Below are positions 1,117-45,806 of a stretch of 64,000 nt of DNA, piece by piece (the first letter of the stretch is position 1; each line of letters starts with the position of its first letter). The stretch is from Vairimorpha necatrix (lineage: Eukaryota), in assembly GCA_036630325.1 (NCBI GenBank), contig CP142728.1:1-64000 (forward strand), in the 5' to 3' direction. The translations under genes and the position numbers were made by a program. The notes under the pieces are model-generated. The model did no database searches, had not been told where the DNA came from, and worked only from the letters and a program-made list of their open reading frames with translations.

Positions 1117-1281
1117 AACACGTAAGCTTTTAGCCCTCAAAACTTCATCAATCTTTTGTTTAAAAAATTTATCAGTTAAATCAATATGTAACTAAAATAA
1201 ATAAAAAAAGAAAATTTTTAATAAAAATTTATCTAACTATTTTTTTTATTCAATTATTTTTTTTTCAGATTAATGATTATA

Positions 1282-5107: not shown

Positions 5108-5156
5108 TGTTATATATCCTTATTATTTTTACCCCTCATTATGGAAAATAAACACA
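5108..5156 (+). repeat. 5' LTR (49 bp) containing CCCC motif, start ATG (5141) and AATAAA (5147-5152)
   Basis: Exact direct repeat of 8242-8290. Confidence 0.95.
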
Positions 5157-8100
5157 TGGGGGCGATACCAGAAAATGGGTCTACAAAGGAGGACCGTGGC
5201 CAAGAGGCTAGAATATTATTAAAAGAGGTTAAAAGGATTGTTTATGAGTTGTTTTTAGAGAAAATTGATGAGTGTGGATTTAAATTAGAAATTTTTAGGA
5301 GAGGTTCTATTTTATTGAGAAATTTTATTGTTGAGAGGATCTCGCAAGAGGGTAGTTGGAAGGAAATTGAGGAAAAATTAGAGTTGCTAGCTATTCAGGA
5401 GGAAAAGGAACAAGTGAGAAAAAAAGAATTTGAAGAGTTGTCCCTAGCGTTATGGGCTAAATTTGAGGAGAAGAATAAGTTGTCTCGTGAGGAAAATAAA
5501 AAGAATATGCGTTGCTACAATTGTGGGAAGTTAGGCCATAGTGTTAGATTTTGTAGGGGAATGAGGCGAGATTCTGAAGACAGAAGAAATAAAAGTAGTT
5601 TTAATTATGTTGGTAAATGTAAAGTGCAATTAGACTTAGAGGGTAAATGTGATGACGATTCCAATTCGGACAAATGTGATTATTATAATGTTGATGGTGG
5701 GAAACGTAAGAAGAAAAATTTAGGGGATATACAAGATTATAGCAAAAAGGACAATAATAAGAGAGTTCTGTTGAGAAGGGATGTAAGAGGCATCGCGTAT
5801 TTAGAGGAGATTATTTCACGGGTAGGAGGAAGAGAGGATGAAGATATTAGTTTTTGTAAGGTTGAAAAATGTATTATCAAGACTCAAGAAGGCAAGAAAG
5901 TTGTTAAAAAAGGGCAGGCTATAGCTCAGGCTTTGTTGAAGAAGACGGAAGATTATATTAATAATTTGGAAAGAAGAAAGATAATTAGAAGGTCGACATC
6001 TGACTATAGAAATCCCATTAGAGCGATTGAGAAACCGAATTGTGATATAAGATTAGTAAGTAATTTAATTGCTCTTAATGACATTGTAGAGAAGGATCCT
6101 TATGAGTTAACTAGGATAAGAGATGTTATTAGAAGTACACAGGGATCTGAATTTTTTACCGTGATAGATCTAAAGGAGGGGTTTTATAGTATTGAGATTG
6201 AAGAGAAGGATAGGTTTAAGACGGCTTTTGAGTTTAATAAAAAGGTATACGAGTGGAATTCGATGGTCATGGGGTTTAAAAACTCACCGCAGATATTACA
6301 AAGAATAATGAATGGGATTTTTGAAAAATTTATTGGTAAGGGAATCGAAATTTATATGGACGATATTGTGATTCATAGTAAGACAAGAGAGGGTCACGAC
6401 AAATTGTTGAAAGAGGCTGTGGATATATTAGAGGAGAATAGTATGAAAATTAATTTGGCTAAGGTTCAATTATGTAAACGAGAGTGATGTTGTTAGGAGT
6501 AACAGTTAATGGCAAGGAGATACTGCCATCTGAAATAAAGCAAAATGAAGCGTTAGAATTTCCCAAACCGGAGTGTGTATCAGATGTTAGGAAGTTTCTT
6601 GGGCTGGCTGGATGGTTTAGAAATCATATTGATAATTATGCAAAACGTACATTGGCGTTGACGGATTCTCTTAAAGGACGAGGAAGTAATTGGAAATGGA
6701 CAGAAGAAATGGAAAAAGAATATATTAGTTTAAGGGAAGTGATTAGGGATTTAAAAGGTTTAGCAATTGTTAATTATAATAAGGAATTTTTGTTACGCAC
6801 GGATGCGAGTAATGTTGGAATGGGTGCTGTTTTAATGCAGGAAGATGATCAAGGTAATTGGGTACCAGTACAGTGGGCATCAAAAAAGTTTACGCCTACG
6901 GAAACGAGATATGGAATCAGTGAGAAGGAGATGTATGCAGTCTTTTGGGGAATTAAAAAGTTTGAATATGAACTACGCGGAAGAAGATTTAGGGTAGAAA
7001 CTGATCATAAGGCATTGATCGAGATTAGAAATAAACCAGCATTTAACAATAATAGAATTAACAGGTGGATTGAAAAGATTCAAGAGTTCGACTTTAGCAT
7101 TGAATATAGAGAGCCTAGTACCATGGTTGTAGCAGATGCACTGAGTAGGGTACATGAAAATGAGAAAACGCTAATGAATAAGGAGAGAAGTATTAAACAG
7201 GCACAGGGTAAATGGGACAAGCATGTTAAAGTTGTTGATGGGAAGGAAATTTGGGTATTTGACTCTGGTAGAGAAGCGGAGATTCCAAAGAAAGAATTGC
7301 GTGAAGGTTTAATTGTCAATGCTCATGAAAATTTGGGACATAGAAGTTTAGGATCAGTGTACTATGCAATGAAGTTTGAATTTTATTGGCCGGGTATGAA
7401 GAAGGATATCGAGGATGTTTTAAAGAAGTGTGAAGTTTGCCAAATATATAATAGGAAAAAGAGTGGTGGTTGTGATTTTGTTAGTTCAAGATTTTATTTG
7501 GAAAAGGTTGCTTTGGATTTGATTGAGTTTAGAGATTTAGGGAAATATGTGTTGGTCGTGATTGATTATTATACTAGGATCGTTTGGGGAAAAGTAATAG
7601 AGGACAAACGCGGAAGCTCGGTTGTAGGATTTTTAAAACAGTTGTGTGGATCAGGAATGAAACCGGTAGAAATAATTACTGACAACGGTAAAGAATTTAG
7701 TAATGAATATATGAGGAATTGGTGTTCAGAGGAAAATGTATTACATAGGAAAGTAAGCGTAGAAAGTCATAGAAGTAATGGAAGAGTGGAAAGGGTAATA
7801 GGAACCATAAGAGAAGGAATATTGAAAGATGATGCTGTGGATTTTGAAGCCAAGGTTAATAGATGTATATGGCGTTATAATAACAGCTATCATGAAGGGT
7901 TGAGATGTACACCGTTTGAGGCCTCAAGAGACGAAACGGGCCATGTTATGATCGAGAATGGACCTGAAGGATTTTATAGTAGGAGGTTTGTGGCTCGCAA
8001 AAGAGAGAAATTCTATAAAGGTCAGAGAGTTAGGGTAGCGAAGAAAGAGAACTTATCGGGTTGTAGTAAGTATGAGAAAGGAAGGTTTTTAGGATATGGT

Positions 8101-8214
8101 GTTATCAAGGAAGTTTGCGGAGGTGACTCGTACTTAGTTAGTTTGGAAAATGGTAGGATCGTGAAAAAGCGGCATTATGATTTAAAAGGTCTGCTTGGGA
8201 TTAATGAGTTCTAG
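5141..8214 (+). CDS. Gag-Pol polyprotein (Gag with CCHC knuckle, RT, RNase H, integrase); one frameshift at ~6483; no recognisable protease
   Basis: Motifs CYNCGKLGHSVRFC; IDLKEGF and YMDD; TDAS/EKEM/TDH/ADAL; HENLGH..CEVC; LDLIEF/TDNGKEF/NGRVERV. The true start is likely ATG 5141 (or 5156), not the track's TTG 5003, which lies outside the TSD. Confidence 0.93.
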
Positions 8215-8241
8215 TATGAGACTACCGTCTTGGAGGGGGGA

Positions 8242-8290
8242 TGTTATATATCCTTATTATTTTTACCCCTCATTATGGAAAATAAACACA
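8242..8290 (+). repeat. 3' LTR (49 bp)
   Basis: Identical to 5108-5156, preceded by the PPT and followed by the TSD. Confidence 0.95.
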
Positions 8291-11200
8291 TTGTGTCTAT
8301 TTTTTATGTTCTTGTCGTAACCTCGGGTGAGGTGTCCGAAACGAAGTTGTTGTTCTATGAATGAACAAATAAAGGGTTTTGTTTTAATTAAGTGTTTATT
8401 TTTATGATCTCTCTGTGGAGTCATGTTTACTTGTTGTCTCTCTGAGCTATTATATCTTTGCATCTTTTTTGTGTGCCCTTCTTTTCATATTTTTTATTTA
8501 TAGAAAATATTTTCTATAATTCACTTTTTCTAAAAATTGAAAAATATGAAAAATTTAAGAAATAATTGTGGTGGATACCACAGTTCTCTTTGGGATTCAA
8601 TTTTCTATGGTTGAAAATATAATATTTTAAAAATGAGAGGGTGTTAAAATATTGGATAATTGAAAAATACTTCCTATATAAAATATACTTGATATGTGAT
8701 CATAATGCCTTAGATATGTTTTGTTTATACTTATATTATATCTTTAATAACCGTTAGATTTACTTCTTGATTGATCTTCATATAAGTTCAATTATGAAGA
8801 GAATTAGTTTGATATATTTGATAACCAGTAAATATTGAAAAGTTTTGCGATTCAGATATGTGGTTTATTAAAATTATTGCGTAAAAAATTTCGGATAGTT
8901 TAAAAGTAACATAACATTCTCTATGAAAATGTTTTACTTAATGTGTTATGTTAAAATGTTATTTTTTATGATAAAACCAATTCATGGATTATTAAAAAAT
9001 TTTTATTTTTAATTAAATCATTAGATTGATTTTATTCTACGAAAATCAAAATGTTTATTCCAAAAAAATCATGAAGATTTTTTTGTTTTAATAATTGAAA
9101 TTTAATTTATCAATTTATTATTATTTTTTTTTATCATTTAATATTTAAATTAAATATAATTTAAAAAAATTAGAAATCGTCATCCGGATGTATGTTTAAT
9201 ATGTAATTGTGTTTATGCATAAAAATATTTTCTGTCATTATTAAAGATAAGATTTGTTTTTTTAATTTATACGCTCTTACATTATATTATCCTTAAATTT
9301 ATATAAATATCTATTAATTAGTTGCATTGGGTTTTGTTTATTTGTTTTATTTAACCTTCTTAGCTCTTATTGATTTATATTTTTAAATTCTTCGGTTAGT
9401 GTAAGATATTTTTCAAAAATTTACTTAAAATGTATTTATTTTGATTTTATTTTTATCATAATTATAGTATCATTAATAAATACGTGGACTATATTATATT
9501 TACTAGAAAAATTCACATGAAGAAATACGAAATTCATATCCAGCCTAGTTTTGTGTATAAATTTACAATTTGTATGAATACTGATAGTCTTATTTTTTTT
9601 TTTAATATTTTACTGACCATTATTAGATTTATTTCTTAGTATTTATCATTATTTCCATTGAAATAATTTTTTGTATTTTATTTTATAATTTTTTTACAGA
9701 TTATTACAAAAATTTCAAAATAATGTTGTAATAAAGGATAACAGAATGAAATGTCGTTCGTTGTGTTCCTCTATAGATGTTTATATTTTATTTTCGTCGT
9801 ATGTCTTTATGTTTCTTTAAGACTTTAAATTTTTATTTATAAATTTTCTTGATATTATTTGGTTTATATATGCTACATTTTTATAATAATTTTAAAAACT
9901 TAAGTTAAGCATAAAAAATGAGTTTTTAGATATGAAGAACTTTCCAATGTTTCCTTGCGATAAATAGTATTGAATATTTTACTATAAGAATGATTTAAAT
10001 CATTTATAAAACTTTTTCAAATATTGATAGTTTTTTGATAACTTTAATCTACAATTTTCTAAAACCCTCCATGATATGGTTTCTTTTGAAATACAAATAT
10101 ATGAAAATTTTTAATAGATTATTTTTAATATTTTTATAAATTTTTCGTTATTGAATCATATGTTTCTCGTGTAGGTTGTATATATCATCATGTTTAATAA
10201 TGTAGGTGTAATATATTGATTTAAATTTTGATTGATATATTTTTTTTAAAAAAAGATTAAGTTGTTATATGTTCTAAAACTATTACTTATTTTAATCAGT
10301 CGTATGTGTATTATTATGAGCGAAATTTGAAAATAAAAAATTCAATTTAATGATCAAAAAATATTATTTTCGTTTTAGTGGTTGAGATTTCTAGATTAAT
10401 TAGTCGTGAAAATTTAATTTTATGAAAATTTTCTTCTTTTTACTTATCTAAAATTATTTGAACGTTAAGTTTGAATGTTTTTATTAACTATTCTAAATGA
10501 AAATGTTTATTTTCAAAACGAGTTTAAGTCCAATACGTTTTTTTTAAAAAAAAGTTATCCTACTACTTTAAATATATTTTCTTTTAAAAATTATTTTTGT
10601 AATATTAACCTCAATTATCTTTATTGAAATTGTATTTCGAAATATATTAGTTTTTTCAAAGATTTTTATTGGCATTATGTTTATTTTACTTGTAGATAAA
10701 TCTTTATGTATTATAAAATTTGTATTGAAGTAAAAAATTTTCTTGACCTTTTCATACTTAGATTCAATCTAACGCATTTTATTGAACTATAGACAATATA
10801 TAATATCATAATTAAATTTCAATTTTTCTTCAAAAATATTGACTATAACAGTTATATAAAAATTTTGATATAAAAATTTTAAATATCTTATAATTATAAG
10901 ACAAAGAATGAAATTTTTTATTTTATAAGAGGAATTTTTAAGTTTAGTCTTTTAACTAATAATATTTCATTTTTTGCTAAATAAGAATAATTTTTATTTT
11001 TTTATTTAAATATGTGTAAATGAATTAATGTATATTCTAAAAATTTAAATTCTTAAGCATACTTTTAAATTATCGAGACTAACGATATATAAATATAATT
11101 TAAGTTTTTTTTATTTCCAAGATTTTTATTTGTTTTTCAGAAGTATTACCATTATGTTAATATTTAATATATGCAATTCAAACTTTTAGACTTTTCTTTT

Positions 11201-12814
11201 ATTTTTTTGTAAATAATCTTGAAAACGTCTTGGTAAAGATTATATAGTATTATAATTGAGAAATATTTGTCGTGTATTAACATATTTTTAGTGGGGTTTT
11301 TTTATTTAAAAAAAGCTAGTATTAATCATGTTTATTTTATGTTAATACTCTTTATATAAATTAAAATTATTTTCTTCTTAAATAAATAAATTTTGAAATA
11401 TATATTTTTTTTGCGTGTAACTATGGTATATAAGGTTTTTTAAATTTAGATTTCATACCTAATTCTATTATTGTTTTTAGCTGTATTGGATTTATATGCA
11501 TTTCTATTCCCCCCCCCCCCCGTTTTTTTGGTTTTATTTTTTTGGCTTATGCGACGCCTTTTTAAAAATCTCAAAAACGTTTTATTCACAACAACCTTGT
11601 ATTAAATTGTATGTGCTCTTTTTTTTATTTAATTATTCATAATTTAAAATTTACTAATTATTTCTTATTATATTATATTATAGAAAATATATTCAAGTAG
11701 GTTTTCCCTAGAATTTTTTAAAATCAATAACATAAATGTTGTTTCTAAGTAAAATTCTTTTTACCGTTACTGAACGATTTACAATTAATAGGTCATATTT
11801 TATATTGTTAATTTAATATAATTTTCTTAATTCTTCTAATTATACATTAAATAAATGTTTTTCTAATGAATATATAATTTTACGATAATTGATGTTTGAA
11901 TCTAGAAAATTTTTTTTTCGTAAATGAACTCTTTTTATAATATTTCGATCTTCATACTTAAATTTTAATCTAATTATTATATAAAAATATTATACTTAAC
12001 GGATTTAGAAAGTTTTATTTATAACAAAAGAGCGATTATCAAATATTTAACCGATAGATATTTATATTGTTTTATTATTTCATTAAAATTAATAATAAAA
12101 TAATATATTTTTATAAATATGATACTAGTATTAATGATTTTACTTTTTAGAATTTTTTGGTCATAATTTCTAATTTTGTGTGGTCAATATGATTGTAAAC
12201 AACAAAGTAATATTTGTGAAATTTGTTTTTTACTAACTTCGATTTCAAAAGTCTACTTTGTTTTATAACTGAAACTTCTTTAGAATTCTATAAACCAAAA
12301 AAATGTAATATACGAGGTTAATCGAAATTCGTTTAAAATTTTTATATAATATTTGTTTTCGTTTTTTTACCATTAGTAATTATTATACTTAATAACGTGT
12401 ACATATTAACCATGTTTGAATATATATATAGTTGATTTTTTAGTATATTTTATAGTTTTAAAATCGTCTGATAAGTTCTAGATAATAAAAAAAAATTGCT
12501 TGTGTTAATTGTACTTATATAATACTATATGCAATATTGGGATTTCTTTTTGTTTATCTTGGCGTAGATTTTAATATAAAAGAAAATTGTATTTCATCTA
12601 ATATCTTGATTGTATATCTTATTTTAAATTCTTATGTATTTATAGTGCAAAGCAATATGAATGAATCATATGTATATCTTTTCTTTATAATCCAATATTA
12701 TCTAGTCATCATCATCATATATATAAAAGAATTTTATTTAATTTTTTACCCCTCTTTTTTGTGATTTTGAAATTTCTAAACGATACATTTTGAGGCTTTT
12801 ATGTTATTATAATA

Positions 12815-15800
12815 TGTTAACCATTTATTTATTAAGGGTTCTAAACCCTACATCCCCCCTCCAGACGGGTAGTCTCTCCATCTTCTAAACAACTCTTCCT
12901 TATCTCTTTCAAATCATAATGCCTCTTTTTAACAATTTTACCATCCAGTAGTCTCACAATATATGAATCATTTTCACTTATAGCTACGATCCTTCCGCGA
13001 CCCGTGAATCTTCCCTTGTCTGTTTTCGCACGTGTACCTAAATTTTCTCTCCTAGCGATTCTTACCTCTTGGCCTACTGTAAATGTCTCTCTGTGTCTTC
13101 TCTTGAACCGACCAGCATATTTTCCATTTTCATCATTTTCAATTATAACTTCAGCAGTTTGATCTCTCCACGCTTCCATCGGCGTACATTTTATTGCTGT
13201 ATGTAGTTTATTATTATATCCTTTGATTGCTCTTTCTATCTTTTCAGAAATATTCTCATCATTTTGCTTTATCAATGTCTCTCTTATAGTTCTGATGCAT
13301 CTCTCGATTCTACCATTACTCCTATGAGCTTCTAAGCCCACTTTCCTATGTTTAATATCATTAATACTACACCATTCTTTAAATCTATTACTTACAAACT
13401 CTTTTCCGTTGTCTGTCACATATTCCTCTGGAAATCCATCTTCCCTTATCCACTTTTGTAATACCTCTATAACTTCACTACTCTCTTTACATCTCAAATT
13501 CGAACCCCACAACCTTCTAGTAAAGTAATCAATACCCAGTAACACATACCTATTCTCTCCACCTATGTCTATTAAATCCAACGCCACTTTCTCCAATTTC
13601 TTTCTAGTTACTGCGAAATCACATCCTCCTGTGTTTTCCTATTGTTAATCCCACATATTTCACAATTCTTAATTACCTTATTAATATGATCTTTCATACC
13701 AGTCCAATACCATCTTTGTTTAATGTTATAATAAGTGCCTTTGACACCTCTATGGTTTAACTCCTCATGTACTCTTGTTATTTCATGTTCTCTACTATCT
13801 AGGCTCAATATCTCTTTCACCTCACCTGTGGAAAATTCCCAATACTGTTTACCGTCCTTTTCTTTAATATGTTTCTGCTTTTTTCCCAAAATTTGTTTTT
13901 CGATCACTTCTTTTCTCTTGTTGTCCTTTTCTTTTTGTTCATCCGAAACTTCTACCTGATCATACTGCCTACTTAACGCATCTGCATCTGTCATCAACTC
14001 CCCTTTCACATATTCTATTGTAAAGTCAAACTCTTGTATCTGTTCTACCCATCTGTTTATTCTGTTATTATTGAAGTATGGCTTATTTCTGATCTCTGCT
14101 AATGCTTTATGATCCGTCATCAAATGAAATTTCCTTCCTCTCAAATCACTTTCAAACTTCTTTATTCCAAAAAAAACACCGCCAACATCTCCTTCTCACT
14201 TATCGTATATCTTCGCTCGGTAGGAGTCAACATTTTCGATGCCCATTGTATCGGAATCCACTCATCCTCTTTATTTTCTTGTAATAGAATTGCTCCGATC
14301 CCCGTATCACACGCATCAGTTCTTACTCTAAATAGCTTTTTTCCGTCCGGAATCTTCAACTTTTTCATATCTCTCAAGCCTTGCTTCATATCCTCAAAAG
14401 CTCTTTCCATATCCTCCGTCCAATTCCACTTAACATCTTTCTTTAAAGCCTCAGTAAGCCTTACTGTTCTATACGCATAGTTGGGAATAAAGTCTCTAAA
14501 CCAACCAGTTAGTCCTAAAAATCTTCTTAACTCTCTAACATTCTCAGGTTTTCTATATTCCAATGTCTCCTGCTTTTTAATCTCATTCGGTCCCATGACC
14601 TCCCCATTAATTGTTACTCCCAGCAACATCACCTCATCTTTTTTGTATTGTATCTTTGTTTGGTTTATTCTCAACCCACACTCTTTAAACTTTTTAATTA
14701 CCCTCTCTAGTAACTCGTCATGCACTCTTACGTCTTTACCATGAATAACTATATCATCCATATATACTTCCACGCCTTTACCTCTGAATTCATCTAAAAC
14801 TCTGTTCATTACTCTCTGCATTATATGAGGCGAATTCTTAAACCCCATAACCATACTATTCCATTCGTATACTCGACCATTCACTTCAAATGCTGTTTTG
14901 TGCTTATGGTGCTCCTCAATCTCAATATGATAAAACCCTTCTTTTAAGTCGATAACCGTAAATACTTTTGACCCCTGTGTGGCTCTCATAATATCCTTAA
15001 TTAACGGTAGTGAGTACGGGTCCTTGTCAACCAAATCGTTTAACGCCATCAAATTGCTTACCAATCTTACGTCCCCATTTGGTTTTTCAAGTGCTCTTAT
15101 TGGACTCCTCCACTCACTTTTGGAACGTCTTATAACCCCTCTATTTTCCAACTTATTCAAGTACTCCTCAAATTTCACCCTAAGGTAGTATGGCACATTC
15201 TGCCCTCTTTTCACAACCTTTTCACCTTGCTTAGTATTTATTGGACACTTCTCTCCTGTGAGATATTTTATCTTTTCTTCTGATTCTTTAAAAACTTCCG
15301 GATACTTTTCAATTAAATTTTCTAACTTATTTACTGTTTTACATCTTTTCCCTTCATTGTTGATAATTGGTTCTTTCTGTAAAACTTGTTCCTTTTTAAT
15401 TTTATATTTTTCCCTACCAGCTACACTTTCATGACATTCTATAGCGTAATGCCCTTCTTTCTTACATATAAAACATTTTGTAGTTTCTCTGATTTCTCTT
15501 CTTTTCCTATACATCCTAAGATTTTCTTTTCTTTCTTCCCTAAACTCTTTCAACACTTTATCCATAATCTCTTTAATCATTTCTTGTCTTTCTTCTGACT
15601 CTCTCTCAAATTCTGCTCCTTTTTGTAAGCCTTTATAAATTTCCTCCCAACTGCTCCTTCCGTCACAAAAATTTTCAAAAATATAATCCTGCAAGTTCGC
15701 AGATGCCAAATCCATAACATCTTTCCACTCAACTTTCTCAACTTTCAATATTAACTTTAGTCTCTTATCTATCCTAATTGCCTCTTTCTCTAATGTTCTA

Positions 15801-15890
15801 GCCTCTTGACTACGGGACTCTCTTGTTTCCCTGTTCATCCTTGTGTTCGCCATGTTAACCATTTATTTATTAAGGGTTCTAAACCCTACA
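12815..15890 (-). mobile_element. Young Ty3/Gypsy LTR retrotransposon, 3076 bp, 38-bp LTRs
   Basis: Identical LTRs at 15853-15890 and 12815-12852 (minus strand TGTAGGGTTTAGAACCCTTAATAAATAAATGGTTAACA); TSD TAATA at 12810-12814 and 15891-15895; PBS TGGCGAACAC; PPT GGAGGGGGGA at 12853-12862. Confidence 0.97.
12841..15862 (-). CDS. Gag-Pol polyprotein (CCHC, RT, RNase H, integrase); frameshifts in homopolymers at ~14170 and ~13635; no recognisable protease
   Basis: Motifs CFICKKEGHYAIEC; YMDD; TDAC/EKEM/TDH/ADAL; HEELNH..CEIC; LDLID/TDNGKEF/NGRIER. The start ATG lies in the 5' LTR and the stop TAG (12841-12843) lies in the 3' LTR. Confidence 0.93.
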
Positions 15891-16283
15891 TAATATTAAA
15901 AATAAATTCAATGTTTTAATTTGACTATTCCAAGTGTGTATACTATGTGTTAATACATTTTAATTATGATTGTTATTTTCGAAAAGCTTGGTCCCAAAAT
16001 ATCGTCAGAATCGTTTTTTAGAATTTATTTAACCCTTCTAGAAAAATTCACAAAAACATGTTAAAAAAAAAAAGTTGAATATAAGTGTCAAAACTTGAGC
16101 TTAGAAGTTCCAAAAATTATCTCATTATAATAATTAAATGTTTTTAGATCGACTTTGCTCTTTATATGTTACTAAAAAGTATTTTTAAAATCATATTTTC
16201 TCCTTTTTAAATTCATTCATCCCAAAATGGAAACTTAACAAGATTAAAAGGGGAAATACATATTTCCAAACAAAACATTTAGA

Positions 16284-16315
16284 TCCCGTTTTCAAAACGG
16301 GAAAGCATACGCTAG
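16284..16315 (+). mobile_element. Helitron-like 3' terminus (hairpin followed by CTAG)
   Basis: Palindrome TCCCGTTTTCAAAACGGGA (16284-16302), then CTAG at 16312-16315 followed by T, which matches the canonical Helitron 3' end. The 5' end was not identified. Confidence 0.6.
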
Positions 16316-18031
16316 TTATAATATATAAATATTATTTGTATCACTTCTAAAACAGTGGTATATTGATCGTAAAAGTAATTCCATTTATTTTCTTTCGTAC
16401 TTATACCAAGTGAAAAAGGGAAAGATCAAATTAAAATTATCTTGTTATTACCTACGTTGTAAATTTAGAAAGATTGTAGAGTTCGTTTTAAAAATATTGA
16501 TTCTTATAACCAATATGCTCCTTCTTATTTAACCTTATATTTCTCTGTTCTTCATAGATTAAACTTTGCTACTTTTAAGTTAGAAGGCTAAAAATATTTT
16601 GCCATTAATAATGTTATGATTGTGTACTTGCTTCATAGATATTCCTTGCCCTTCATATACAAACTTCTTTTTTTTATTTTTATTGTAATGATTTTTAGCC
16701 ACGTAAGTTAAAGTTTAATTATTTTGCATAGATAAACATATAAAAACATTTATTTTTTGTTGTATTATTCGTGTGTTGGAACGTTGCTGGTGAATATTTG
16801 ACAGAGTAAACTTTGACAACTGTCCTTATGATGTAATCGTTACTACACACTTCCATGAAGCCATGTATTTAGTTTATCAAGTTTTGGTTTTTAAAATTTA
16901 TTTAAATACTTTAATGCATATACCTTATTGTTTTAGATAGATTTATAATCTTATTTCTTGTATATAAATATTTCCTAATTCTTTCAACAAATATATTGTT
17001 AGACTAAATTATATGTCTTAAATGATTGATATATAGAGTATGGCATTTCTTGATATTAAATCACTCAATTATTGAGTTTTAATGTCTTTTTGAAAGAATC
17101 TAATTTACTTGTTTTGAAAAATATGTTTTTATCTTGCAAAAAGAAATAAATATATAGTTTAATAAACGTATTGTGTCCAAAGCCGATTAAATATGTTTAA
17201 CTTTACTTCAATTTTTTATTTTTATGTCGATTCTGCACATAATGCGTTTCATAATTATTTTAAATACTGCAAATTATATACTTATGTACTCATACGAAAA
17301 GACAAAGAAATCTAAATTTCTTAAAATATTAATTATACAGATATTTACGTTGGCAACCTCTAAAAAATGTACTAAATTGTGCAAGAAATAATTTTCGAAA
17401 TAACAATTATAATATTTATTAAGATGTATCAGGCTGCAGACCTGCACTGACGATACGGCTTCCAATTAAATAATGATTATTGGTGCTGTCAATATCTCAG
17501 AGCATTGTAAATAAACATTAGACATGTTTGACATTCACAAACTAAAAAGAAGAAAAGTGCATGTCACATGAAGTACTACGTATTTAGTAGAACTTCGGTT
17601 TCTTGTTTTTTTGTTTACATCTCAAAGAGTTTGATAGTTAATCTAATTGACTATTTAAACGATTTACTCCTGACCCACAATTCCGATGAGCGGGAAACAA
17701 GAAAATATTATAAATCAATATGTTAGTTTAGACTCACCCTCTTCTACTTCGGATCAGGTTACATGCTGGATCATAAGATGTGTAGATACTCCATAAAGAA
17801 AAAAAAATTATTAATTTGTCATATATTAATTTTTATGTTTAATTGTTTAATTCATATCTAAATATGAAAAATATAGTTTTTTTCATAAAATAAAATAATT
17901 AATTTCATTGTTATAATATATATAAACAATCTTTACAAACAAATACAACATACTTACTAATATTTTTCTAAATAAAAAATGAATCATTCGGGATATGCTA
18001 ATAGTGTTTCATATTTCTAGTATATTCTGAA

Positions 18032-18190
18032 TAGGTTCCGCGTTAGCATCTCCTGTTTGTGGGCAGCTTCTCGGCTCGTAGTCCTTTTCAAATCGGAACA
18101 TGTACATCTCTTCGGTAGTCTGTTGGAATGATTTCGTTTGCCTTCTCTGTTAATCATCTGTATGTACGCTTCTACTTTCTTAGAGTATTT
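18032..18190 (-). mobile_element. 3' fragment of probable RLE-type non-LTR retrotransposon
   Basis: Minus-strand translation KKVEAYIQMI; shares the terminal motif GTTAGC(A/G)TCTCCTG(T/C)TTGT with 27723 and 36170. Family assignment is from motif recall. Confidence 0.6.
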
Positions 18191-30030: not shown

Positions 30031-30070
30031 CTAACCTAACACCCACCCACCTACCCTACCTACCACTTAA
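30031..30070 (+). repeat. Short interstitial telomere-like tract
   Basis: CTAACCTAACACCCACCCACCTACCCTACCTACCAC, with the same units and orientation as 1-1116. Confidence 0.55.
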
Positions 30071-35900: not shown

Positions 35901-36169
35901 TAAAGTTTCAACTTTTAAAATTTTATTTAATTTTTGATACATTTATTTCTTAAATAACGAAAGAAAGTAATTGAGAAGATTATTTTTATAAATTTTCCTG
36001 AATCAAAATAAAAAAATAACAACTTATAGGTTTTTCTAGAAAAGTCCCAACGTATTTCAAATTAATTTGTAAGAAAGTTTTTTTTTTATACAAAGAAAAT
36101 ATGCATAATAAAATTAATTTGTGTATGCTAGTGTTGTTTATACTTCTAATTAAACAAGAATATTATTTG

Positions 36170-36455
36170 AGTTGGCGTCTTCTGCTTGTAGGAAGCATCC
36201 GCTCTATGGTCCTTTCAACATCAACTTCGTCTCCTCGAATTAGTAATTTCAGAGATACGCATTCTTTCATCTTCTTTAGCTTGATCGTCTAGATATAAGC
36301 TTGTACTGTCTTAGGGATTCTAAGTCACTTGTAAAAGATTTGTAAAACTTAGACTATACCGTCGCAGGTGATTATGTAGGGAATTATTTCTGTTTTAAAA
36401 CCATACTAAGCACAGTTCGTTTGTAAAAACATCGTATTTCTATACTTATCGGTTT
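36170..36455 (-). mobile_element. 3' fragment of probable RLE-type non-LTR retrotransposon
   Basis: The minus strand encodes (frameshifted) KYDVFTNELC..YGFKTEIIPYIITCDGIV..VQAYI, homologous to the 53295 fragment; shares the terminal motif with 18032 and 27723. Confidence 0.65.
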
Positions 36456-38467
36456 AAAGGAGATATTAAATATATATATAAATTATATTTTTAAAACAAG
36501 AAAATATAATTAAGTATTTTTATAACCGCGATAATAAGAAAAATTATCTGATTTTTCCTTTTCTCGTTATAAATTTTTTTCATACAGTTAAAAAGCTGGA
36601 TGTTGTTTGTTTAATTATGCGTTGTGTCAATATATCATGTTTAAGCTAATTTAGATAGATAAAATATATAGTGTAGTGAAAAACTCAAAAATTTTCATGC
36701 AATATTTATAAAAAAGCTTTTACCTCAGTACTATTATTATAAATGAAGCACCAAATTTTCTAATATTCATTAGAAATACAGAAATTTATAAAACCATTTG
36801 TACAAGCGTGGTAGGTGTAATTTTAAAGTAACTAAAAAAAGCCTTAAGCAAGTCTTAAGACAATACAACAAAGTTATTCCGATGTAATGACAAGTTAAAT
36901 ATAGCAAAACAAACACGATATATATATTGATTCTATTTATCGTGGCATTTTTTTATAATTAAAAACACAATAAAATCTCTGTTTTCATTATTTAATTATT
37001 ATGAAAACGAGTTATGACATGGGCTGTTTTCGTTAGTGTCGAAATTAGAGTTAACAATACTTATAAAGTTAACGAAAACATAGTATATTAGATTTTACTA
37101 TATATATGACGTTCTTATTCACACTTTGATTTTTATAATATAAACATGTTTTGAAATAAAGTAGCTTTAATATCATTTTTTTGTAATTACATATTATACG
37201 GATTTATAATTCAATCTTTACTTTATATGTTTATGATTTGTTATATTAAATTTACCTGTGCATTACAATGGCTTTTTTGGTAGATTCGATATTGACCTAA
37301 ATTTAAGCATAATTTTTCTGTTTTGATACAAATACTAGGTCTTTTCTGTAAAAAATAACCTGCAAATAGTAATAGAGTCACAAAAGATTATGTACAATTT
37401 TTTATTTTAAAAATTATATACAATATTTGCTATCTCTGATATTTAAATAATTTAGCCTACACAAATATATAAATAGCCGTTTAAACCTATACTTCTTAAT
37501 TGTATCTATACAAAGAATCAAATTTCACATAGAAACATAATAGTAAAACAAATTTGGAGAAATACTTGTGCAATATTACTGATATAATTTAAAAAAATCA
37601 TTGTATTATTAACAAACTATTAAGTTAACATAATTTTAAAAATTCAATCTATATATTTTTTCATTCTAAGAGGATCCTGAACTAATTTTTAAATTACGGC
37701 TTTTTTATAATAAACTGTGGCTACTAAATGTTTGTTTTGTTGTATTAAAGGCAATTTACATTATCATCAGATACTGTAACAACCAGTCCTTTCAATATAA
37801 ACAGAGTTAGAATTTATACAATTAAAATTTTGTTTTCAAATTTGAATAGAGCTAAAAATAGTAAATACAGATTATATTATTAAAACTATGTTAATTATTA
37901 ATCAACTCACGTGCCAAGTCATTTTTTTTCATATCTGTGTCTAATACATTATATATTTTATTAATATTGTAATATAACACATGTATATTAATTCTTAAAG
38001 TTTTTTTTAATCTTACCCTTTATTTCTAGTTAAATATAAAAAGAGAAATACAAGGCTTTGTGAAAATTAAAAAGAAATATGTAAATTTATATGGTTTAGA
38101 GCGTTCGACTTTTTATAACAGTTAAAATTTGATTATATAAAAACTTTTATTTTCTTACAAATGAAAATTTTATTTTGACAGCACAATTGATATTTAGTAA
38201 ATATTTAATTAATATCATTTGCAGTAGTATATAATTAAAGTCCAAAGTGCTTGAAAAATTTCCATAATTTTAGAATGTTGATATGTAAGAAAATAAAACG
38301 TAATTTATATGCTAAAATTCATATAATATTTATAGGCATATAAAAATAAATATTTCTTTTCATCTTTAAATGATTTGTATTTTATAAAAAATTTTAGAGC
38401 TGAAATTTTTTCGTTTTAAATATAAAAACGATTAGACATAATTATTTATTTCATATTTGTTTATTTT

Positions 38468-41400
38468 TGTCGTATCCTTCTATAAATATTATATATTTTC
38501 ACCCCGATGCAATTCGTAAATAAAGGAACATTCGACATGGCGACAGCGATAAAAACTGTTGGCTGCTTCAGTGGAAAGAAGGAAGAGGATATAAATACAT
38601 GGTTGCGTGACACAACGTTCACGGCGAGGGTTATGGGACTGACAGAAGATCAGACCGCCAGACTTATCTGCCTGGGTCTACGGGGGCCAGCTCTCTCATG
38701 GATAGCAATGGCATTTGAACGGGTGTCCGAACTTGATCTGGCAGAGGTTACTAAGAGTCTAAAATTGAGATTTTACAGTTCACAGAAAACTCTGGCCACT
38801 CTAGACGAGTTTGTTAAACCGCAACAATTTGGCAACCTAGAGGCTTTCATAGACTTCTGCAGGAAAGGAAACTCCCTTATAGAGCAACAAACAATGGGGT
38901 ACAAAGCAGTCAGCCTCATAGTAATCAAGAAGTCTCCTTCAGTCCTCAAATCAATTCTTTATGATTTTGCTAGACAATGCCAAGATTGGAGTGAATTCCT
39001 GAGGCGCACAGAGGAAGTTTCTTGGATAGCATTCCCTATGAAAAGTAACACGACTAATACGGACGAGACACTAGATAACAGGACTTTGAAGGTCGCACCA
39101 TCGAAGAAGGGAAATATACCCTACACCATAGAAAACTACAAGATCAACAGCTGTTTCACTAATCCTTGCTACATAAACGTAGAATTCAATCGTAAACGAC
39201 ATCGAGCATTAATTGATACCGGAGCTGATGTCTCCCTGATACCCGCAAGAGTCCTCGAAGGGACAAATATCAGATTTACCAGATCTTCAACGATCATACG
39301 AGCAGCATCAGGGACACCATTGGAGATTATAGGAAGATGTCTAAATATCAATTTTAGGACGGAAAACACTTCAATTACTTTCAGCCCTTACGTCACAGAA
39401 CGGACACCGGACTACATAATCTTAGGAGTTGACGCTATACGAACGAACCCCATATTACTGGAACAACTGATCAGAAAATTCGCCAATACAGTCAAGAAAG
39501 GCTCACTGATTAACAAAGTCAATTACATCTCAATCGAAGAGAAATACCATGACATGTTCAAAACTGAAATTTCAGAGCTTACACTTTGTAACATGGGGAA
39601 ACATCAAATCGAGACAACAGTAGCGAAGGCAATTTACCAGAAAAATGGAAAGATACCTCTGCACTTTGAAGAGGAAATCACACAACAGATCAAGAAGAAC
39701 TTGCAGTTGGGCGTAATAAGAAATAGTAGGAGCCCCTGGAATAGTAGAGTTGTTCCGGTAACGAAACCTGATGGGTCGATCAGGCTCTGTATAGATTACA
39801 GAGAGCTCAACAAGATAACAGTCAAAGATAAATACCCCCTCCCACGAATTAATGAAATTCTCGACGATCTAGCTGACGCTACTATCTTTTCGACATTAGA
39901 TGCTACGTCGGGATATTATCAGATAGCCCTTGAAGAAGTAGACAAGGAGAAGACAGCATTCAGCTGGAGAGGAGGACATTATGAATTTAACAGGATGCCG
40001 TTTGGGCTATGTAATGCCCCTGCTACTTTTCAGAGAACTATGGATAAGATTTTTGTGAAAGAAAACAGAAAATTCGTCATACCATACTTGGATGACATTA
40101 TTATCTATTCTAAAAATCACCAGGAACACCGTGAACACTTGGAAATCGTATTGGGTAAGCTTAAGGCAGCAGGAATCGCACTTAACAGGAAGAAGTGCCA
40201 CTTCTTCAAAGAAGAAATTAAAATTCTAGGGAATATAGTAACAAACAAGACGATCAAACTGGACCCAGAGAAGGTCAAAGCCATAAACGAGTATAAGGAG
40301 CCGACGAATATTGCTCAACTACGGTCGTTTCTTGGGCTCATAAATTACTGTAGGGAGTTCATCCGTAACTTATCAGCGATAGCAGCCCTCTCTACGAACT
40401 GTTTAAAGGAGAGTCAAAGCGAAGTGTTAAGAGTATTTCTCTCAGCAAAAAGGAGAAACAGGCATTCGAAGATCTAAAGAGACTTCTCACAGAAGAGACA
40501 ATAAGATACAAGATTAATCTCAGGAAACCGTTTATACTGACTACGGATGCGTCAGAGCAGGGAATAGGCGCGATCCTCTCACAGATTGGAGATGATGGGA
40601 AGGAGCACTTCGTAAGTGCATTCAGCAAAAGTTTAGAGAAAGCCCATAAGAACTACTCTACAACAGACAAAGAACTCTTGGCCGTTGTAAAAGGCATCGA
40701 GAACTATAGACACTACCTCCTGGGTAGAGAGTTCATATTGAAGACGGACCACAAAGCGCTGACTTATCTATGGGAAGCTAAGAATCCTACCAGTAGATTG
40801 CTGAGGTGGGCAATGAAGTTGCAGGAGTATGCATTTCAATCAACCTACATAAAAGGAGAGGTTAATGGAGCAGACGGGTTAAGCAGACAAAACTCGACAG
40901 AAAAAGATATAAATATCATCGAAGCTACAGGACCAAGCGATGAAGACAGACAGAAGATCTTAGAATCCTACCATCTAGACGTTGGACATGCTAGCGCTAG
41001 TACGATGAGCTTCATGATTTCACAGAGGTACAAATGGGCAGGAATGCATAAGGACATCAAGGAACACGTAGAAAAGTGTAAAACGTGCTTGAAATCGGGA
41101 TACCCATTACGAAACACAAAAAACAAAGTTATACGATCAGAAAGGCCGAACCAAATATGGGTGATAGATCTCATAGGACGCATATGCGACACTTCGGGTC
41201 AAAACAGCTTCATATTCATTGCTATTGACCACTACTCTAAATGGGTCGAGACGGCTGTTATTAACTATAAAACAGGGTCGAAAATAATGGGATTAATCCA
41301 GCAATTGATTATCGAGAAACACGGCATTCCAGAAAGAATCTTGACTGACAACGGGCTAGAATTTATAAATTCTGACATCAAAGACCTGGCCGAAAAGAAC

Positions 41401-42011
41401 GGTATTGACTGGCAATACAATTCACCAGAACATCACGAAACTGTAGGCGCAGTAGAAAGAGCGAATCAGACGTTAATGAAGATACTAAATAAAATTACAG
41501 ATTTCGGAAGGGTAAGCTGGAAGAACAAGCTTCCAGAAGCCACGAGATGCCTCAACCTGTCTTATAATCGGAGCATAGGAACATCGCCGTTCATGTTAAG
41601 GGAGAATAAATTGCCGATGCTGTCTGTAGACAAAGCGCTAGACAAGGAAGAAGTGACATTCTCGGCGGAGGAAACGAAGAGTAAGCGCGATGAAAACTTC
41701 GAAAAGTACAAAAAAGCAATCGTGAAAGGGAAAGTAGAAGTGGCGAAAAAGCTAAACGTGGGCGATAAAGTTTTAATATATCGTGAGATCAAAAGCGGGA
41801 AGTTCAAGTGCAATTGGGAAGATGGATACGTGATCACAGAAATAATTTTACCCGATGCCTATGTGGTAAAAAAGAATGGAAAAGTATACAGGCTTAACAA
41901 AACACGAGTTAAAGCAGATACTTCAATTTAGGGGGGAGAGGTGTCGTATCCTTCTATAAATATTATATATTTTCACCCCGATGCAATTCGTAAATAAAGG
42001 AACATTCGACA
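38468..42011 (+). mobile_element. Young Ty3/Gypsy LTR retrotransposon of a second family, 3544 bp, 70-bp LTRs
   Basis: Identical LTRs at 38468-38537 and 41942-42011 (TGTCG..CGACA); TSD ATTTT at 38463-38467 and 42012-42016; PBS TGGCGACAGCGAT; PPT AGGGGGGAGAGG at 41930-41941. Confidence 0.97.
38507..41931 (+). CDS. Gag-Pol polyprotein (Gag/CA, aspartic protease, RT, RNase H, integrase); frameshift at ~40386
   Basis: Gag FSGKKEEDINTWL; protease ALIDTGADVS..ILGVD; RT RLCIDYRELN, MPFGLCNAPATF, YLDD; RNase H TDAS/TDH/ADGLSR; integrase HLDVGH..CKTC, IDLIG/TDNGLEF/GAVERAN. Adding one C at GCAGCCCTCTC restores AAPLYEL. Confidence 0.94.
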
Positions 42012-42664
42012 ATTTTTATTTTCCTCCTCAAGCAAAAATATATTTTTCTAGTTTGAATTTACCATAAATAATTATATATTGTTAGAATAAAATTTAAAAG
42101 TAATAGACAAGATGTTTTTTGATACTTTAACTACAAGATTATCAATTTGGTTAATAAATGGTTATTTTATATACGTTTTATACTGATGAAGGAATTTTTA
42201 TGCATTCCATATCTATAATTATTATAATAGTCTTAAATGTTTTTTACACATTTCAGGATTTATACGTGAATTTCCATTTGTTTATTTATGGCAATAAATA
42301 AGAGCCCTTATAATATCGTGAGATCACACATAGAAATAAGTTATAAAAATAGATTAATAATAGGAAAGTATATAATTCGTATTAAAATATTAAATAGGAT
42401 TTTTTTATAAATTTTAATATATAAAGACCTTTTTTGGCTTGTATGTGTGTTTAATGTCAAGCAATTAAGTTTTTCTAATATTTCGAAAGATTTTAACGTA
42501 AGACTAAGAATTTTACGTAATCAATTAGATAAATTTAGTAATGACCTATTAATTATAGAAATACTGAACTTACTCTGGTTAAGAATCTTGTATAGTTGTT
42601 TATAATAATATGCACAATTTTACAAATTTGTAATTTTATTAATCAAAAAATATATGGTAGAATA

Positions 42665-45600
42665 TGTTATAATCAGTAATAATATTAAACCCCAATTATG
42701 TTAAGCACTTATATGGGGGCGATACCTAAAGAAGAGTTCACAAGAGAGGACTGTGGCCAAGTGGTCAGAAAGATGTTACAGGAGTTAGAGCGTATATTGT
42801 ATGAATTGGATTTGAGAGATGTGGATAGAGAGAAATGGAAGAGTGAGCTGTTCAAGTTGGCTTCGATGGATTTAAAAGATTTTATTGTGAGAAATATCAA
42901 AAAGGAAGAAAATATTGAAGGAATAAGGAAGAAGCTATTGTTAAGGATTAAGGAAGTAGAGGAGGAAGAAAAGATATATGAGGAAATGAGAAAAATTATT
43001 TCTAGGACTATAAATGAAGAAATTAGTAGAGAACAACCAAGACAAAAATCGAAATTACCGAGATGCTTCTATTGTGATAGACAAGGGCATAGGGTGTTTG
43101 AATGCAGACTGAAGATTAATAGAGATAATTATTATAAAAAGAATAACAAGGATAACAGTTGCAAAATGGAAGTATGTAGTGAATCAGAGTCAAGTCAGGA
43201 GCGAGATTTTAGAAGATCAAAAAGAGGACTTAGAGTCAAATTTGAGAAAAATCAAAAAGAATATGCCGTTAAAGAGGAGAGTAAGAGAATCAGATTAAAT
43301 TTAGATAAGTATGCTAAGAGTTTTGGAGAGGTTTTTAAGTTAGGAAAAGAGGAGATAGAATATTGTAAACTGGAAAAATGTAAAATTAATACTGAAGCGG
43401 GTAAGAAGGTATTTAAAAAGGGACAAATGGTTCCGCAGGCGTTGATAAAAGATACAGAGCTACATCTAGAAGATTTATTAAAAAGGAAAGTGATAAGAGA
43501 GTCAAATTCAAGTTGGAGGAATCCTATAAGGTCAATCAGAAAGCCAAATGGTGAGATAAGACTGGTTAGTAATTTGATGGCATTGAACGATATTGTAAAA
43601 AGGACGAGTATAGATTGTCTAACATAAGAGATGTTGTAAGAGCTACACAAGGTGCAAAATACATGACGGTTTTCGACTTAAAAGAGGCCTTCTATAGTAT
43701 TGAGATAGAGGAGGAGGATAAACATAAGACGGCGTTTGATTTTAATGGCAAGGTTTATGAATGGAACTCTATGGTTATGGGATATAAGAATAGCCCGCAG
43801 ATATTGCAGAGAATTATGGATAGGATTTTTAGAGATATGAAAGGCAAAGGAGTAGAGGTGTATATGGACGATATTGTGTTGTACAGCCGAACGATAAGAG
43901 AACACGAGCAATTAGTGAAAAGGGTATTAAATAGACTGAAGGAAAACAATATGAAGCTGAATGCAAATAAAATTCAGTTTTGTCAACGTGAAGTTAAGTT
44001 ATTGGGAGTCACTTTAAATGGAGAAGATATAATACCGTCAGAGATAAAGAAAAATGAAGCCCTAGAGTTTCCGATACCAACATGCGTGTCAGATGTAAGA
44101 AGATTTTTAGGAATGACGGGTTGGTTCAGAGATTTTATTAAGAATTACGCTGGATTGACAGTTAGGTTGACAGATAGTTTAAAAGGGAAGAATGATAATT
44201 GGAAGTGGACGGATGATATGAAAAACGAGTTTAATAATTTAAAAGAAGTATTGAAAGGCCTAGGAAAGCTGCGAATAGCAGACTATGATAAAGAATTTTT
44301 GTTGAGGACTGACGCTAGTAATGTAGGCATGGGCGCAGTACTGTTACAGAAAAATAATCAAGGAGAATGGGTGCCAGTACAGTGGGCGTCTAAGAAGTTT
44401 ACCGTTACGGAAGTTAATTATGGTATATCAGAAAAAGAAATGTACGCAGTTTTTTGGGGCGTTAAAAAGTTTGAATATGAATTAAGAGGTAGGAAATTTA
44501 GAATAGAAACTGATCATAAAGCGTTGGGCGAAATAAGAAACAAGCCCGACTTTAAGAATGCTAGAATTAATAGATGGGTCGAGAAGATTCAGGAATTTGA
44601 TTTCGTGATAGAATATAGAACTCCAGAAAATATGGTCGTAGCCGATGCGCTAAGTAGGGTATATACAAAAGAAAAAGATGCAAAGAAAAAGAGAAATGAA
44701 ATACGCCGTGATAGACAAAAAGAAGGGAAAAGAAATAAGCATGTAAAAATTGTAGAAGGTAAAGAATACTGGGTATTTGATAGTGGTAGAGAAGGCGAGA
44801 TGCCTTTGGAACAAGACAGAGAGAGATTAATAATGGATTGTCATGTCAATTTGAGCCACAGAAGCAGAACAACGGTATATTATGAGTTGAGGAAACAGTA
44901 TTATTGGCCAGGAATTAAGGATCAGATCGAAAAGGTCCTTAAGAATTGCGAGACTTGTCAGATTTTTAATAGAAAAACGAGTGGCGGTACTGATTTAGTG
45001 AACACGACAAGATATTTAGAGAAGGTTGGCTTAGATTTAATAGAATTTAGGGATGAGAAAGCGTTTATTGTTTTGGCAGTTGATTACTTTACAAGGAGAT
45101 TATGGGGCAGAGTATTGAAGAGCAAGCACGCATCTGGAATTGCCGAATTTATCAAGGATTTGTGTAAACAGGGTAGAAAACCAGAGGAAATCATTACGGA
45201 TAATGGTAAAGAGTTTTGCAACGAAAAAGTTACCGAGCTATGTAGAAATTTGGATATTAGTCATAGAAAGGTCAGCGTTGAGTCGCACAGAAGTAATGGA
45301 AGAGTAGAAAGAGTTATTAGAACTGTAAGAGATAGTATTTTAAAGAGCCAAAAAGAGAAATTCGAGAACAAGGTTTATGAAGCTATTGAGAAATATAATT
45401 TAAGTTTTCATGCTGGTATTAAGTGCACGCCAGTAGAAGCTTTAACCGATAATACAGGAAATGTTAGTATGGAGAATAGTCCAGAGGGAAAGTATGCGCA
45501 ACAGTTCAAAAGTTGGTTTAGAGAAAAGTTCAAAAGGAACCAGATAGTTAGGGTTGCCAAGAATGAGAATTTAAAGGGATGTAGTAAGTATAGTAAGGGT

Positions 45601-45806
45601 CGATTTTTAGACATGGGAAGAGTGATTGAGCTATGTCCAGGGGATTCATATATAGTGAGATTAGAGAATGGAAGGTTGGTGAAAAAAAGGCATTATGATC
45701 TTAAAGGTGTAGGGGATTTAAAGTATGTTGAAGGAGACTAACCGTCTGGAGGGGGGATGTTATAATCAGTAATAATATTAAACCCCAATTATGTTAAGCA
45801 CTTATA
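42665..45806 (+). mobile_element. Young Ty3/Gypsy LTR retrotransposon, 3142 bp, 49-bp LTRs ending TG..TA
   Basis: Identical LTRs at 42665-42713 and 45758-45806; TSD GAATA at 42660-42664 and 45807-45811; PBS TGGGGGCGATACC; PPT GGAGGGGGGA at 45748-45757. Confidence 0.97.
42698..45741 (+). CDS. Gag-Pol polyprotein (CCHC, RT, RNase H, integrase); frameshift in an A-run at ~43600; no recognisable protease
   Basis: Motifs CFYCDRQGHRVFEC; YMDD; TDAS/EKEM/TDH/ADAL; HVNLSH..CETC; LDLIEF/TDNGKEF/NGRVERV; clear paralog of 5141-8214. Confidence 0.93.

Follow-up and report, generated by a model that had tools for sequence, protein, structure and literature searches.

Protease-less Ty3/gypsy retrotransposons in a Vairimorpha necatrix subtelomere: support for an old lineage from a single loss

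The first 64,000 nucleotides of contig CP142728.1 (Vairimorpha necatrix, assembly GCA_036630325.1), hereafter the window, carry three complete long terminal repeat (LTR) retrotransposons, elements A, B and D, that are Ty3/gypsy by descent and by their remaining anatomy, yet fail the canonical criterion of an aspartic protease. Together with a decayed copy, E, they very likely represent three or four families of one deep microsporidian Ty3/gypsy subclade. Comparison with relatives supported an old, stable protease-less lineage derived from a single loss, in which the retropepsin was, with high probability, removed by clean excision between the nucleocapsid knuckle and the reverse transcriptase (RT). 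An earlier note, made from the letters of this DNA, had proposed such a lineage, and the proposal held.

The region between knuckle and reverse transcriptase

In A, B and D a single open reading frame (ORF) runs from a short Gag through one CCHC knuckle and a charged linker into RT, and no D-[TS]-G motif precedes RT, as the earlier note had described. The knuckle (C-x2-C-x4-H-x4-C) was located at aa 125-138 (A), 130-143 (B) and 123-136 (D) and matched Pfam zf-CCHC at E 0.002-0.016. A conserved RT N-terminal segment, '..L..KYPEVF..C.I.T..G..V.K.GQ', begins 54 (A), 26 (B) and 47 (D) residues past the knuckle, and the linker is thus shorter than the 40-90 aa first given. At only 26-54 aa it cannot accommodate a retropepsin of about 90 aa; the available space is the strongest argument for a missing protease. 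In element C, a protease-bearing neighbour in the window, about 10 residues lie between the end of the protease and this segment. The ORF occupies 96.6-98.2% of the element in A, B and D and therefore leaves no room for a second gene.

A divergent protease fold in the linker, which the earlier note had named as counter-evidence to look for, was sought with hidden Markov models (HMMs), hhalign and AlphaFold, and none was found. The A, B and D pieces had no match to RVP, RVP_2, gag-asp_proteas, Asp_protease or Asp_protease_2 in Pfam at E<=1; in the same scan C, the positive control, matched four protease families (gag-asp_proteas at 2.1e-7, RVP at 4.6e-6, Asp_protease and Asp_protease_2). A custom protease HMM, built from seven segments that Pfam verified as protease (those of C and six relatives) and run unfiltered (--max) on all 841 six-frame window pieces of at least 30 aa, recovered only C (4e-31; next 0.083). 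When 19 protease-less N-termini were compared by hhalign with the protease alignment, the probability was 0.04% with 1 aligned column, against 99.0%, E 2.8e-18 and 88 columns for four control protease-bearing N-termini from outside the profile. The D[TS]G motif never occurred 5' of RT, only in the RNase H/integrase region (aa 708 in A, 519 in B and 695 in D), and neither AlphaFold model (B residues 1-300; residues 1-147) contained a beta domain before RT. No ribosome-skipping 2A-like (NPGP) motif was present in any of the 22 clade proteins scanned for it.

It is highly improbable that a protease is there but was missed, being too diverged or encoded elsewhere in the element. Part of PMC3248453 describes retropepsins as short and poorly caught by profiles, which would allow for such an oversight; against it stand the 26-54 residues available, the lack of a beta-rich fold and of an upstream D[TS]G, the gap between the hhalign result and its control, the empty six-frame scans and an ORF that fills 97-98% of the element.

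In the models, the N-terminal domain has the appearance of a small helical module for RNA binding or oligomerisation and not that of a two-lobed capsid protein. AlphaFold predicted helices over residues 14-127 of B, followed by the knuckle, for residues 1-300 (9-row alignment, mean predicted local distance difference test score (pLDDT) 59.9), and helices at 8-38, 46-52, 55-65 and 72-127, again followed by the knuckle, for residues 1-147 (21-row alignment, pLDDT 89.7). No Pfam Gag family was matched at E<=1 in the A, B and D pieces scanned. Foldseek searches of the pdb with the N-terminal models returned nothing at E<=0.001; the top rows were weak RT N-terminus matches to Ty3 and other RTs for the 1-300 model (E 0.12 upward), Ty3 RT being the weak best match, and weak knuckle matches to retroviral nucleocapsid fingers for the 147-aa model (E 2.4 upward). 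These fold searches turned up no protease, and on their own they neither establish nor exclude a protease, capsid or other fold. The Arc C-lobe aligned to the helical model with Z 5.4 (root-mean-square deviation 3.1, 63 aligned), level with unrelated rows. Comparison by hhalign of the protease-less Gag with a mixed protease-bearing Gag alignment, a heterogeneous target, gave 1.6%, and a two-copy complex prediction for residues 1-150 scored 0.00 without controls, which speaks neither for nor against binding.

Relatives and the age of the loss

A word-indexed search with B residues 1-300 returned 8 proteins among 2287 candidates. Two Nosema granulosis proteins were 58-61% identical to the query over 99-100% of its length, and an Enteropsectra breve protein, 32% identical over 99%, had the same N-terminal architecture. 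In the alignment, the relatives with complete N-termini showed the helical domain, the knuckle (absent in P0007), a variable charged linker and RT. A search of longer proteins (992-2830 aa) yielded 5 among 1301 candidates: one is C-like, and the other four, of 996-1019 aa, are uninterrupted polyproteins encoded on contigs of 3.09-3.16 kb; they share 44-59% identity with A, B and D, have the knuckle at aa 124-143 and lack a protease. An exhaustive representative search listed 150 matches, nine shorter ones of which were scanned with Pfam, six with a protease and three without. P0020, P0072 and P0126 are protease-less and full-length (987-1090 aa, 3.0-3.4-kb contigs); the P0072 and P0126 subclades lack the knuckle as well. 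Altogether, seven full-length uninterrupted ORFs of 987-1090 aa on contigs of 3.0-3.4 kb were found in other assemblies, none with a protease, and where compared with A, B and D such relatives shared only the 44-59% identity given above. Nine further clade members had no retropepsin match at E<=1, the single Peptidase_A17 match (0.056) lying in the RNase H region. A close full-length relative with a protease, the other counter-evidence that the earlier note had named, was looked for in the relative searches and with Pfam and was not found.

A metagenome scan added three loci, all 49-53% identical to B at the protein level and without a protease match at E<=0.1. Two of them, L001 and L002, come from two metagenomes and are 100% identical over 3101 nt. 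In the Joint Genome Institute (JGI) metagenome contig L001 (50-2578) the 5' end of the protease-less ORF is joined in frame to a piece of another element's RNase H; the fusion in L001/L002 could reflect nested or chimeric insertion, or else a join made in assembly.

A phylogeny of RT-RNase H was run as a test of a protease-less clade, as the earlier note had suggested, and the clade was recovered. The pool comprised 161 proteins with an RT-RNase H match, kept if at least 300 query positions were covered. A quick tree of 54 rows included all with a score of at least 230, C and every sixth of the rest. For the careful tree, 12 distant rows labelled protease-negative (long multi-RT proteins of 1.3-3.5 thousand aa, on which the small custom HMM is unreliable; all outside the clade of interest) and one unknown row were dropped, and the four new full-length proteins were added, giving 45 rows and 394 columns made up of database matches and window elements only.

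On the careful tree, one split separated 17 protease-negative and 11 N-terminally truncated rows from 16 protease-positive rows and 1 truncated row (ultrafast bootstrap 98, SH-aLRT 90), and a single change suffices for the 33 rows of known protease state. The sister group (P0134, P0129, P0081 and P0149; support 99/98) is protease-bearing, and more protease-bearing lineages branch outside it. Because the protease of these outside lineages is homologous to that of C, the change is a loss, provided that the root does not fall within the clade. The sister group contains the nearest protease-bearing relatives, whose RT-RNase H is only 37-41% identical to that of B; the window elements are therefore not recent deletion derivatives. 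C itself shares only 28-29% identity with the protease-less polyproteins and sits elsewhere in the tree. Path lengths within the clade go up to about 2 changes per site. Members that carry a species name belong to V. necatrix (P0013), N. granulosis (P0001, P0002), Pancytospora epiphaga (P0119, P0132) and Nematocida ausubeli (P0066); P0119, P0132 and P0066 are truncated and so do not count among the rows of known protease state. One member is labelled as a Clostridium metagenome-assembled genome, presumably a binning error.

Element anatomy, reading frames and chromosome-end setting

Elements were delimited by repeat finding and inspection of the junctions, which gave four complete LTR elements in the window (A to D; Table 1). 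The boundaries that the earlier note had assigned to the elements at 5108, 12815 and 42665 were correct within 1 bp. Its count of three copies was right for A, B and D but omitted the degenerate copy E, and the span that it gave, 5141-45741, also contains the protease-bearing element C, which is 653 bp from D.

Table 1. Coordinates of the retroelements and their parts in the window.
Feature	Position	Strand	Details
Element A	5108-8290	+	3183 bp; 49-bp LTRs at 5108-5156 and 8242-8290
Element A, internal parts		+	Putative primer-binding site 5157-5169; ORF 5141-8214; polypurine tract 8232-8241
Element A, target-site duplication	5103-5107 and 8291-8295		TTGTG
Element A, knuckle and linker	5513-5554 and 5555-5716	+	54-aa charged linker, where a protease would be expected
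Element B	12815-15890	-	3076 bp; 38-bp LTRs, 5' at 15853-15890 and 3' at 12815-12852
Element B, internal parts		-	Putative primer-binding site 15839-15852; ORF 15862 down to 12841; polypurine tract 12853-12862
Element B, target-site duplication	12810-12814 and 15891-15895		TAATA (+ strand)
Element B, knuckle and linker	15434-15475 and 15356-15433	-	26-aa linker
Element C	38468-42011	+	3544 bp; distant Ty3/gypsy relative; 70-bp LTRs; target-site duplication ATTTT
Element C, protease (DTG)	39176-39442	+	gag-asp_proteas and RVP matches
Element D	42665-45806	+	3142 bp; 49-bp LTRs at 42665-42713 and 45758-45806
Element D, internal parts		+	Putative primer-binding site 42714-42726; ORF 42698-45741; polypurine tract 45748-45757
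Element D, target-site duplication	42660-42664 and 45807-45811		GAATA
Element D, knuckle and linker	43064-43105 and 43106-43246	+	47-aa linker
Element E	about 1281-4450	-	Degenerate B-like protease-less copy; tblastn pieces and LTR pair

The two LTRs of each element are identical (49/49 positions in A, 38/38 in B, 49/49 in D and 100% for the 70-bp pair of C), and the 5-bp target-site duplications (TSDs) of A, B and D are perfect, in agreement with the earlier note. The LTRs of A and B have TG..CA ends, those of D TG..TA. Each LTR is present exactly twice in the window, with no solo LTRs or extra copies there beyond each element's own pair. The polypurine tract (PPT) GGAGGGGGGA is common to A, B and D and abuts the 3' LTR. 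A TGG-initial sequence, the putative primer-binding site (PBS), lies 3' of the 5' LTR in all three, and 13 nt of it are identical between A and D. The ORF starts at an ATG within the 5' LTR and then crosses the PBS; that of B also passes through the PPT and stops within the 3' LTR (12841-12862), making 98.2% of B coding. The ORFs are open under the standard code, and an alternative genetic code was rejected. Pfam gave the Pol order RVT_1, RT_RNaseH and RT_RNaseH_2, Integrase_H2C2 and rve in A and D; RVT_1 and RNase H were detected in the piece of B that was scanned, and the RT motif YMDD is present in all three. Everything for LTR-type replication is retained except the protease.

A CCC or CCCC run stands a few bases 5' of the in-LTR ATG in the LTRs of 38-70 bp (5108-5156, 15853-15890, 38468-38537 and 42665-42713); we take this motif to resemble the microsporidian transcription-start signal. 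A second ATG arises at the LTR/PBS junction (..A/TGG..) and accounts for the conserved beginning of relatives, 'M-x(2-5)-M-[AG]'. We know of no LTRs as short as 38-70 bp, although the literature was not searched for a record.

Five frameshifts interrupt the reading frames in the window (one in A, two in B, one in C and one, in an A-run near 43597, in D), four of the five in homopolymer runs. Contigs of four public runs (X1-X4) were compared with the window across 4500-16500, which covers A and B. In A, the sole X1 contig (depth 59.3/59.3), which covers 5108-8270 with 5 substitutions and 1 gap, has one base inserted after 6483. In B, one base is inserted after 13633 in X1, X2 and X3 and two bases are deleted at 14169 in X1-X4, in both cases at all of the depth. 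Each change restores the frame, and the three coincide exactly with the frameshift sites of A and B. Because the frames of A and B are continuous in the run contigs, the breaks in the window are assembly errors or are private to the assembled copy; by analogy, those of D and C are probably assembly errors too. Programmed Gag/Pol frameshifting was rejected, as the shifts lie within the RT, RNase H and integrase regions and the reads have none of the three in A and B.

The assembly appears to have base errors besides homopolymer indels. Compared with the X1/X2 contigs, A carries substitutions at 5748, 5964, 6006, 6007 and 6041, all G in the reads, and lacks the G at 6483. Two of the substitutions share one codon (TAT to TGG) and another turns TGT to GGT; the resulting W and G are the residues of all relatives at those positions. 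With the two adjacent changes taken jointly, none of the five introduces a stop.

The claim of the earlier note that A, B and D are recently mobile is plausible, the data being consistent with it. In its favour are the identical, very short LTRs, the TSDs and the ORFs of A and B that are intact in run contigs. Across A, B and D, 136 bp of LTR were compared with zero differences, against about 85% identity in E, whose LTRs agree at about 35/41 positions and whose ORF, with a 5' end reading MANTK..., is split into many frames; E thus shows, from within the window, that LTR pairs do accumulate differences over time. Runs from other studies contained copies with at least 99% identity. Other observations limit the claim: LTRs of 38-49 bp allow only coarse dating, and 0/136 bp permits a few per cent divergence; summed contig depth amounts to about 1-2 copies per family; and the run contigs over 4500-16500 contained no empty site or polymorphic insertion, the sole joint spanning B (12693 to 16312, with 9 extra letters between) not being a clean excision footprint. 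The low copy number, the missing polymorphism and the clear decay of E would suit relics or domesticated genes that no longer move and whose frames are kept for another reason. Such a state is nonetheless very unlikely, given complete LTR-PBS-ORF-PPT-LTR structures with perfect TSDs in three families, LTR pairs identical where those of E are not, the YMDD motif and integrase domains, and many diverged families each with an intact 1000-codon ORF in an AT-rich genome.

The window is a subtelomeric chromosome end of V. necatrix or a very close relative. Noisy CCTAA/CCTA telomeric repeats were read directly at 1..1110, and all five retroelements lie less than 46 kb from the telomeric end. The species assignment is made because the only sizeable non-element ORF (55206-57395, minus strand) encodes a 729-aa product that is 97% identical over its full length to 'uncharacterized protein VNE69_04001 [Vairimorpha necatrix]'. 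This product matched no Pfam family at E<=0.1, a single relative was recovered among 7997 scored candidates, and the ORF is a lineage-restricted subtelomeric gene. GC content is 26% across the window and about 22-23% outside the elements; the intervals 16000-38000 and 46000-55000 (~22% GC) have no ATG-started ORF of at least 120 aa, which is unusually gene-poor for a microsporidian.

Around B, summed contig depth in X1 and X2 was 10- to several-hundred-fold over neighbouring bins at 12520-12920 and 15728-16500, and back-joints in this high-depth zone link about 16316 and 12706; B seems to lie inside or beside another high-copy repeat. X2 contigs on B (12835-15285) had 1-4 differences from the window per about 600 nt, and an X2 contig on its flank (12023-12682), over 660 nt, had 58 differences and 6 gaps; the flank may be a repeat paralogue, or else B is much younger than the split of the two sources.

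Proposed replication without an element-encoded protease

Our preferred reading, held tentatively and at somewhat less than even odds, is that A, B and D are autonomous elements whose single polypeptide acts uncleaved and in cis. A polyprotein of about 118 kDa would stay unprocessed by any retroelement protease; its knuckle and helical domain would bind and chaperone the RNA that encodes it; RT and RNase H would copy this RNA, starting at the PBS from a tRNA-type primer and going through the customary LTR strand transfers; and the still-tethered C-terminal integrase would insert the cDNA, giving the 5-bp duplications. Autonomy is favoured over use of another element's protease because of the monophyly and depth of the clade and the retained RT, RNase H and integrase. 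Uncleaved action is favoured because the linker has no conserved site and is free in length (26 to about 150 aa), and because the N-terminal domain is small and helical.

Maturation might instead be outsourced to a host protease, a Ddi1-type retropepsin or another cytosolic endopeptidase that cuts the linker and perhaps the RT/integrase junctions, which we consider rather unlikely. The K/R/E-rich linker varies in length within the clade yet is always present, is predicted to be disordered (B 152-178, pLDDT <50), and an ancient, stable loss suits a dependable host supply better than supply by another element. The 9-sequence alignment, however, showed one invariant K and no conserved cleavage motif in the linker, and the RT, RNase H and integrase junctions carry no mark of cleavability. 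Between uncleaved and host-cleaved modes the data do not choose.

Less likely still is a protease borrowed in trans, with A, B and D parasitising protease-bearing elements such as C. A complete C, with identical LTRs and a TSD, adjoins D, and helper-using non-autonomous LTR derivatives are well known (TR-GAG, LARD and TRIM elements). But C is remote from the protease-less polyproteins in identity and in tree position, and the clade is monophyletic and deep and comprises many families, every one with RT, RNase H and integrase intact. Derivatives that depend on helpers tend to originate many times over and to lose the bulk of their coding capacity. Cleavage sites would also need to track a foreign enzyme across the whole radiation.

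Several points count against uncleaved, autonomous action in cis. The mechanism is proposed from sequences and models, and to our knowledge every LTR retrotransposon or retrovirus tested (Ty1, Ty3, Tf1, HIV) needs its protease, so that an uncleaved mode would be unprecedented. C, at 653 bp from D, is a source of protease in trans within this genome, and a disordered basic linker is the type of segment that host proteases cut. The N-terminal fold has no significant match, VIA-align on the helical part giving generic helical matches only (best Z 6.3), and the read check of the frameshifts spans A and B without D.

Canonical Ty3/gypsy elements (Metaviridae, e.g. yeast Ty3) share with A, B and D the TG..CA-type LTR ends, 5-bp TSDs, a TGG-starting PBS, a purine-rich PPT, a CCHC knuckle before Pol, and the order of RT, RNase H and then integrase with its H2C2 zinc domain and DDE core. 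Unlike them, A, B and D have no aspartic protease and put Gag and Pol in a single ORF with neither a stop nor a frameshift between the two; their Gag measures only about 125 aa and matches no recognisable capsid family, their LTRs are 38-49 bp and contain the start codon, and the whole element is about 3.1 kb long. The protease-bearing kin (C, P0134, P0129, P0081 and P0149) are likewise compact (3.5-3.7 kb) and encode a single polyprotein, but retain, between Gag and RT, a retropepsin of about 90 aa, detected by Pfam or the custom HMM.

Other systems resemble the elements in part. DIRS/Ngaro elements and hepadnaviruses reverse transcribe without an element-encoded protease, as A, B and D would, but have separate Gag/core and Pol ORFs and an unrelated RT phylogeny; DIRS/Ngaro rely on a tyrosine recombinase, and an integrase is missing from hepadnaviruses. 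R2-type single-ORF non-LTR elements combine an N-terminal zinc finger, RT and an endonuclease/integration module on one cis-acting polypeptide, but lack LTRs, PBS and PPT and use target-primed reverse transcription, not a DDE integrase. By analogy, the proposed protein logic would resemble these single-ORF non-LTR elements more closely than a capsid-maturing retrovirus, the DNA mechanics being LTR-type. The Nbr elements of Nosema bombycis reportedly go back to Xu et al. in 2006. According to a passage of PMC2474625, a protease is part of 'nearly all' Nbr polyproteins, so that some microsporidian elements, at the least, differ from A, B and D in this respect. TR-GAG, LARD and TRIM elements are also LTR elements short of canonical genes and possibly helper-reliant, but they have no RT or integrase, while A, B and D keep all of Pol except the protease and belong to an old clade. 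Microsporidia-specific Ty3/gypsy groups with a single polyprotein are described in part of Parisot et al. 2014 (PMC4202319), and they share the single Gag-Pol ORF and the microsporidian host with A, B and D; the word 'protease' occurs 0 times in its main text, and its Fig. 1A and supplements may show domain content. Full-text literature searches, whose reach excludes figures and supplements, returned no description of a protease-less Ty3/gypsy clade.

Annotation pipelines that require a protease domain will misclassify these elements as fragments, and public names on relatives include 'endonuclease' and 'Pol polyprotein from transposon 17.6'. The clade is a near-minimal LTR element (3.1 kb, 38-bp LTRs, 98% coding) and informs how far the LTR cycle can shrink. 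Textbooks hold the protease to be obligatory in every LTR retrotransposon and retrovirus, the maturation cleavages making RT and integrase competent. An old clade without protease, with intact, young-looking copies in several genera, makes it testable whether processing is essential. It is possible, if doubtful, that LTR retrotransposition here proceeds without Gag-Pol proteolysis, perhaps without a closed capsid, and that a minimal 3.1-kb tethered-polypeptide element has diversified across microsporidia since a single loss. If the uncleaved mode is true, protease-driven maturation would be a dispensable add-on to the LTR cycle, not a core requirement.

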